NCBI GenBank assembly: GCA_028534125.1
Contig: CM052851.1
Location: forward strand, 39,494,001 to 39,558,000
Length of the DNA: 64,000 nucleotides
Origin: Lama glama
Taxonomy: Eukaryota
Direction of reading: 5' to 3'
Both the position numbers and the translations under genes were made by a program. Within the stretch, counting starts at the first letter, position 1. Every line of letters starts with the position of its first letter. The notes beneath the pieces are model-generated. The model did no database searches and had not been told where the DNA came from. It saw nothing but the letters and a program-made list of their open reading frames with translations. Below are positions 5,871 through 6,081 of this stretch, in pieces.

Positions 5871-6081
5871 ATCACCGTGGCAACAGTCAGAGAAAAACCA
5901 CCATCACTGATTCATTAGGATGTGGAAACCCTCTCCACCGTCACAGTCTCCTTCTCAGACCCTTTAGGACAGATTCAATCCCCAAGGCTTCAGTGGCCAT
6001 GCTACTCAGGGACACCCAAGTGCTCGTTTCCACGGCAACACAGAGACTGTGTATCCCTGTATCTGTGGTTACTATAGCAAC
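5871..6081. promoter_or_regulatory. Cluster of three RFX X-box motifs upstream of the TUB long-isoform exon
   Basis: ATCACCGTGGCAAC (5871-5884), GTTTCCACGGCAAC (6026-6039), GTTACTATAGCAAC (6068-6081). All resemble the palindromic X-box GTTGCCATGGCAAC. Confidence 0.7.

Follow-up and report, generated by a model that had tools for sequence, protein, structure and literature searches.

A cluster of three X-box-like sites 5′ of the MGSQ exon of TUB, a probable RFX-bound alternative promoter

The TUB locus and its X-boxes

The window analysed here, a stretch of 64,000 nucleotides, carries the 5′ region of TUB, an obesity and blindness gene, on its minus strand. The tubby-domain exons lie 45–48 kb past the left end of the window, and the homologous proteins can be followed, one exon after another, out of the window and into these exons; among eight named TUB records compared, that of Camelus ferus is the closest (439 of 454 residues), which points to a probable camelid genome. 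The main first exon of TUB (MTSKPH) lies within a CpG island, 34.9 kb from a triplet of X-box-like sites. RFX factors act as a switch for cilium and sperm-tail genes, and tubby-family proteins are IFT-A adaptors. The features around the triplet are as follows (window coordinates).

4983–5030, minus strand: second long-isoform exon (RTTRRKYWKEGREIAR), with a basic stretch
5579–5663, minus strand: internal exon of 85 nt; acceptor AG at 5665–5664, donor GTAAG at 5578; ATG at 5646, opening MGSQHSKQHRK...
5601–5735, minus strand: ORF of 44 codons (MGVRTPLPSF...) with a strong-context ATG at 5735; overlaps the MGSQ start, with which it is out of frame
5871–5884, no strand assigned: X-box 1, ATCACCGTGGCAAC; one perfect half-site, central CpG
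6026–6039, no strand assigned: X-box 2, GTTTCCACGGCAAC; 5 of 7 pairs; CpG at the centre, where the consensus has TpG
6068–6081, no strand assigned: X-box 3, GTTACTATAGCAAC; the best box of the cluster; no CpG, 6 of 7 pairs
8615–8642, minus strand: coding end (MLANQPSAEG) of an alternative first exon; donor at 8614, in frame into the 5663 acceptor; in 8 of 40 homologues (bats, mole-rat)
8883–8896, no strand assigned: exact X-box, 241–254 bp 5′ of the ATG at 8642; a better match than boxes 1–3
27376–27542, minus strand: first exon of TUB in the distal CpG island; its donor follows 27376; joined to the MGSQ exon in 4 of 40 homologues
27714–27727, no strand assigned: X-box in the distal CpG island, by sequence match

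Boxes 1–3 together span 211 bp, and each combines a perfect RGYAAC half-site with one mismatch to GTNRCCNNRGYAAC, none of them being an exact match; degenerate forms of this consensus are quoted in PMC2375033. Out of seven possible Watson–Crick pairs, box 1 forms three, box 2 five and box 3 six. The sequence-only reading on which this work builds had described three X-box-like palindromes within 211 bp; their places and span stand, whereas box 1 is a weak palindrome because only three of its seven pairs form. It had also placed them 135–350 bp from the first ATG. The distance measured is 136–346 bp to the ATG at 5735 on the minus strand, which is not the first in the stretch, others lying at 6000, 5915, 5904 and 5872.

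The cluster stretch has a GC content of 50% and a CpG observed/expected ratio of 0.32, below the thresholds used (GC > 55%, CpG observed/expected > 0.65), and a CpG-island promoter at the cluster was rejected on these grounds; all but one of its four CpGs touch box 1 or box 2. It matches the genome once, at itself, which rules out origin from a multi-copy repeat or transposon (ancient interspersed repeats aside), and no tandem repeats were detected within 5871–6081. The earlier description of the stretch as neither CpG island nor repeat is thus borne out by composition, copy number and the tandem-repeat search. No TATA, CCAAT or GC box was found in 5700–6300. A plus-strand gene was also rejected.

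All three routes into the MGSQ exon carry an X-box (the triplet, 8883–8896 and 27714–27727), and the box at 8883–8896, which the sequence-only reading did not include, together with the exon at 8615–8642 is a candidate for a second RFX promoter. The exon at 5579–5663 would be lengthened 5′ in transcripts which begin near boxes 1–3. Forty homologues, chosen by similarity to this stretch, were compared. An MGxRT start, which needs the exon to be extended 5′ of its acceptor, is present in 23 (12 primates and 11 others); the 5665–5664 acceptor is entered in 12, the upstream part is read in this genome's frame in three, and two start at MGSQ. Nine of the 11 non-primate MGxRT records bear the NCBI label LOW QUALITY, which denotes that frames or stops were corrected, and two are without an NCBI name. 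The ATG equivalent to 5735 is the in-frame start of the 561-residue TUB form in primates. The human form (NM_003320) uses the same exon pair, and in primates the records open with MGART and continue through MGSQ; its first ATG, however, lies in another frame in this genome and in the majority of non-primates. We rejected 5735 as a coding start in this species, since its frame is not that of the TUB coding exon. Because the 5735 frame differs and the non-primate MGxRT records are mostly frame-corrected, the conserved TUB coding start here, as judged from sequence, is most likely MGSQ at 5646.

The codon equal to human Ile20 falls at window ~5676 on the minus strand, 13 bases before the acceptor, in the pyrimidine tract of the latter and ahead of MGSQ. 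In human, p.Ile20Phe is described as tremor-associated (PMC7529431, accessible part); from its position this variant may act on splicing and not on the protein.

Several further observations concern the neighbourhood. In the distal exon the MEGVSS... frame serves the main exons and a different frame serves the MGSQ exon; the longer upstream frame of seals maps to this region in two pieces. The TUB 5′ region is unusually rich in near-consensus X-boxes, with additional ones in its 5′ introns at L005:4567 (C36:39488567) and L004:5267 (C36:39479267). An optional 53-codon exon of long TUB forms (LGDASSNVKL...MTP) lies at L004:8061–8219 on the minus strand, and occurs also in bats, rodents and elephant. 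A small CpG-island-like patch at window 12501–13000, in the TUB 5′ intron, is exon-free so far as assigned. At window ~50300 lies an eIF3f-type domain exon on the same strand as TUB, mouse Eif3f being a neighbour likewise; this exon and a CpG island at window 55.7–56.7 kb are probably EIF3F and its promoter.

Conservation and rarity of the sites

Conservation was read from chance ORFs on orthologous mammalian DNA in public assemblies, as translations and thus at the codon level. The plus-strand frame over the boxes, used as query, gave six matches, five of them orthologous; one more was obtained by further search, and P0002 came from the homologue search. Over nine frame-shifting alignments, seven of which reach a box, 43 of 50 codons are identical in the boxes and 402 of 572 in the non-coding flanks (one-sided Fisher p = 0.011, on rows that are related and non-independent). 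The count leaves out P0044, a tandem-repeat protein, and P0047 as aligned on the minus strand (score 51). Conservation had been put forward with the sequence-only reading as a check, and at this level the box codons are kept more than their flanks, in which codon conservation already reaches 61–80%.

Box 1 keeps 25 of 30 codons across six orthologous ORFs, and has drifted in P0041 (two of five). For box 2 the figures are five of five in P0043, four of five in P0045 and three of five in P0073, a bat-like ORF in which IAMET stands in place of VAVET and brings the centre nearer to the consensus; for box 3 they are four of five in P0043 and five of five in P0045, which over boxes 2 and 3 keeps nine of ten. 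Three orthologous lineages lie behind box 2 and two behind box 3. P0043, the closest ORF, covers all three boxes and keeps 13 of 15 codons, barely higher than the 114 of 143 in its flanks. All ten peptides spanning boxes are able to encode RYYNYYNNRRNRAC exactly, and seven of the ten could encode the one-mismatch consensus, against 11 of 739 five-residue windows of the same ORFs. A metagenome scan for half-site plus X-box gave 120 loci, none of them orthologous (one 16-bp match, E 0.46), and searching proteins with the minus-strand ORF that covers boxes 2 and 3 gave one candidate, with none scored.

The window holds eight X-box sites (13 strand matches) against 5.7 expected, and none of 100 shuffles reached 13. 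Background stretches from the same genome contained ten sites in 259 kb (26 loci), and a second set contained five in 109.5 kb (11 loci), giving 15 in 368.5 kb for both. At the background rate of the 259-kb set, simulation puts the probability of three sites in 211 bp anywhere in 64 kb at 2e-5; at the window's own, higher rate it is 2.5e-3. A tighter X-box pattern, composed after the boxes had been seen, has 3978 strand matches genome-wide against 746 for the reversed pattern. Two such boxes 15–45 bp apart occur at four loci in the genome, boxes 2 and 3 being one of them; this paired pattern has six strand matches, compared with ~0.1 expected from single-site counts and two for the reversed pattern. 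The cluster at TUB is non-random, far above chance, and of the marks of an RFX target both the inverted repeat and the enrichment over chance were found.

The other three tight-pair loci are C5:744702, C9:36294022 and C11:23015890 (L169–L171). Their 227 ORFs gave two weak Pfam matches, in a search whose control was uninformative; an RRM exon lies ~4 kb from the pair at C11:23015890. Upstream of three tubby paralogues (14 loci, with starts unmapped) a search for X-box clusters found only scattered single sites.

RFX occupancy and expression at Tub

In mouse ependymal cells RFX1 and RFX3 peaks at Tub lie at −60.4, −38.3 and +1.2 kb (Table S8 in the accessible part of PMC7498320), and no RFX2 peak for Tub in these cells is among the matches listed there. 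The two upstream peaks are 22.0–22.1 kb apart, closer to the 21.7 kb that separate the distal box from the triplet here than to the 18.8 kb between the distal box and the 8883 box. The box at 27714–27727 is, from its position, likely the counterpart of the −60.4 kb peak. Distance from the main start favours the 8883 box as the counterpart of the −38.3 kb peak; interpolation of this peak falls at window 7000–7190, between the triplet and the 8883 box, so that the peak does not tell the two apart.

Expression of Tub in Rfx2-null testis falls about 2-fold at P30 (logFC −1.10, p 3.8e-4) and is unchanged at P21 (Table S1 in the accessible part of PMC4498915); the P30 fall, a gene-level value, may be secondary to spermatid loss. 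In the testis ChIP of the same work Tub is scored 'no', a score confined to the interval from −500 to +50 around annotated starts. In Rfx2-null ependyma Tub changes by +0.60, and it is not among the changed genes listed for the Rfx3-null (PMC7498320, accessible part). The sequence-only reading had envisaged a dedicated ciliogenic or spermiogenic promoter. The presence of an X-box cluster 5′ of a TUB exon, the tabulated RFX peaks around this part of mouse Tub and the fall in testis agree with this; the 'ciliogenic' part is weakened because Tub is not down in the Rfx3-null and is slightly up in the Rfx2-null ependyma. 'Dedicated' is too strong, because the MGSQ exon has an internal acceptor and is also spliced from two other first exons, each bearing an X-box.

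Nine public runs on record as RNA contain sequence of 5560–6120, eight of them labelled reproductive system (two studies). Six runs have more than a small share, with 0.35–0.60 of the words of 5560–6120, and all six are labelled reproductive system, again from two studies; the small-share runs X10–X14 (0.12–0.18) were left out. The label covers male and female, including the ciliated ducts of both. Predicted shares are at most 0.11 for the cassette exon alone, 0.24 for an exon reaching 5735 and 0.70 for one reaching 5980. The observed shares fit an extended first exon; unspliced RNA or carry-over of DNA from a related species would also yield them. As for proximity to a start, most functional X-boxes in human are no more than 500 bp from a start site (PMC5838959, accessible part); the extended exon annotated for 23 of 40 homologues and the RNA shares would fit a start within about that distance of the boxes. 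A search of five supplementary files of PMC5838959 did not find TUB.

Proposed promoter function and its alternatives

We infer binding, start site and tissue as follows: the triplet likely acts as an alternative TUB promoter that is poor in CpG and bound by RFX, probably strongest in male germ cells, with a transcript predicted to be translated from MGSQHSK. We give this reading a probability of roughly 0.6. RFX dimers (RFX2 with RFX1 or RFX3) would occupy boxes 3 and 2, and perhaps box 1, and would set a TATA-less start between ~6020 and 5750, leaving box 1 beside the 5′ leader or, as may be, inside it. The transcript would leave the 5663 acceptor unused, so that its first exon is an extended one, splice from the donor at 5578 and continue into the shared exons, with activity chiefly in meiotic and post-meiotic germ cells. 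The upstream ATGs, 5735 included, open out-of-frame or short ORFs in this genome and would damp translation outside primates, so the yield of MGSQ protein would hinge on leaky scanning or re-initiation. That protein would retain the N-terminal helix and the tubby domain common to TUB forms, adding a site for acylation at Gly2 and a run of basic residues. Methylation of the central CpGs in boxes 1 and 2 could tune binding, since these CpGs occupy the consensus TpG position. Methylation affects binding at some RFX1 sites.

The triplet might instead be an intronic RFX enhancer for the 8.9-kb, distal CpG-island or main promoters, with the MGSQ exon a cassette and its extended form a minor product or a retained intron. 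The good acceptor at 5665–5664 and the in-frame donors at 8614 and 27375 would suit such an arrangement, as would the 12 of 40 homologues that splice in from the 8.9-kb or distal exon, the four or five upstream ATGs that load an extended leader, and the finding that, in mouse, promoters account for under a third of the RFX peaks (PMC7498320, accessible part). Nevertheless, sequence 5′ of the acceptor is included in 23 of 40 records, from primates and others; the RNA shares are above the cassette-only expectation, and the search of 5680–6100 found no acceptor whose pyrimidine count exceeds 10 of 15, which together make an enhancer unlikely. A promoter used in ciliated somatic cells (oviduct, efferent duct, ependyma, neurons, photoreceptors) and not in spermatids would accord with the ependymal RFX1/RFX3 peak at a compatible distance, with a 'reproductive system' label which takes in ciliated ducts of both sexes, and with the RFX control of worm tub-1 and fly Tulp in ciliated neurons (PMC2375033, accessible part). 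Against it, Tub falls in the Rfx2-null testis and in neither the Rfx2- nor the Rfx3-null ependyma, and we consider a purely somatic promoter a good deal less probable than the germ-cell one, indeed rather improbable.

That the boxes are weak or repressive, through RFX1-type binding without activation, or are conserved merely along with the whole stretch, seems to us very improbable. The slight rise of Tub in Rfx2-null ependyma and the high codon conservation of the flanks would be expected on this account, and a single X-box is not predictive of regulation in flies (PMC2375033, accessible part). Here, however, there are three sites in 211 bp, which include one of the four tight pairs in the genome, and the changes in boxes 2 and 3 remain within the RFX consensus.

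If the germ-cell promoter reading is right, the cluster is most likely a fresh instance of a known promoter class, which is ordinary in that worm and fly tubby genes are already known to be RFX-controlled, and mouse Tub to have RFX peaks nearby. The promoters bound by RFX2 in spermiogenesis (PMC4498915, accessible part) share with TUB the 14-bp inverted X-box, here near a putative start, and the fall in Rfx2-null testis at P30; they differ in that Tub is absent from the promoter-bound list, and here three boxes would serve a start ~35 kb from the main one. Ependymal RFX1/2/3 promoters such as that of Tulp3 have the same motif, Tub having three RFX1/RFX3 peaks, and a minority of promoters hold two or three closely spaced RFX sites; Tulp3, however, falls in both Rfx2 and Rfx3 nulls and Tub in neither (PMC7498320, accessible part). 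C. elegans tub-1, under DAF-19, and Drosophila Tulp/CG9398, under dRFX, are likewise tubby genes controlled by RFX (PMC2375033), and the fly and worm genes serve as RFX targets or ciliome reporters (PMC2375033, PMC10393296); the accessible part of the PMC2375033 table gives no conserved X-box for the fly gene, whereas the mammalian gene has X-boxes at three 5′ exons. The accessible parts of PMC7529431, PMC9847046, PMC7020506, PMC7982829 and PMC13626738 hold nothing on this promoter, and in openly readable papers, which do not include the original TUB isoform papers, we found no description of the cluster or of a myristoylated TUB. The cluster flags an alternative start which promoter-window ChIP analyses miss, and with the exon anatomy it explains the inconsistent annotation of the long TUB form across mammals.

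N-myristoylation requires Gly2 behind the initiator methionine, with Ser6/Lys7. The MGSQ start has this motif, and M1, G2, S6 and K7 are invariant in 40 of 40 homologues, while positions 3–5 and 8–12 vary. Of the myristoylated isoform envisaged earlier the motif is therefore present and is what carries the proposal; in primates it would be buried by the in-frame upstream ATG. The MGSQ form resembles cystin and NPHP3, ciliary proteins of the myristoyl-plus-basic kind, in its MGxxxS/K start and basic run; acylation of TUB and binding to UNC119 are hypothetical.

A bolder version, which we hold only tentatively and think somewhat doubtful, is that the cluster lets RFX2 drive a TUB form of spermatids which truly begins at the conserved MGSQHSK. 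This form would be an IFT-A adaptor with a myristoyl group and a basic tail, which would keep it at membranes independently of its PI(4,5)P2-binding tubby domain. The choice among the three X-box-bearing first exons would then switch the anchor on or off, and the human 29-residue extension would be a primate frame change; variants in that extension, such as p.Ile20Phe, would therefore act on splicing or the leader. Existing mouse data would allow a direct test for a TUB form with a lipid anchor, be it in sperm or in ciliated cells, and the anchor switch is the part worth testing. In three macaque records (P0022, P0024, P0025), where the upstream ATG is in frame, the glycine of MGSQ is followed by Pro3, which would be expected to impair myristoylation.
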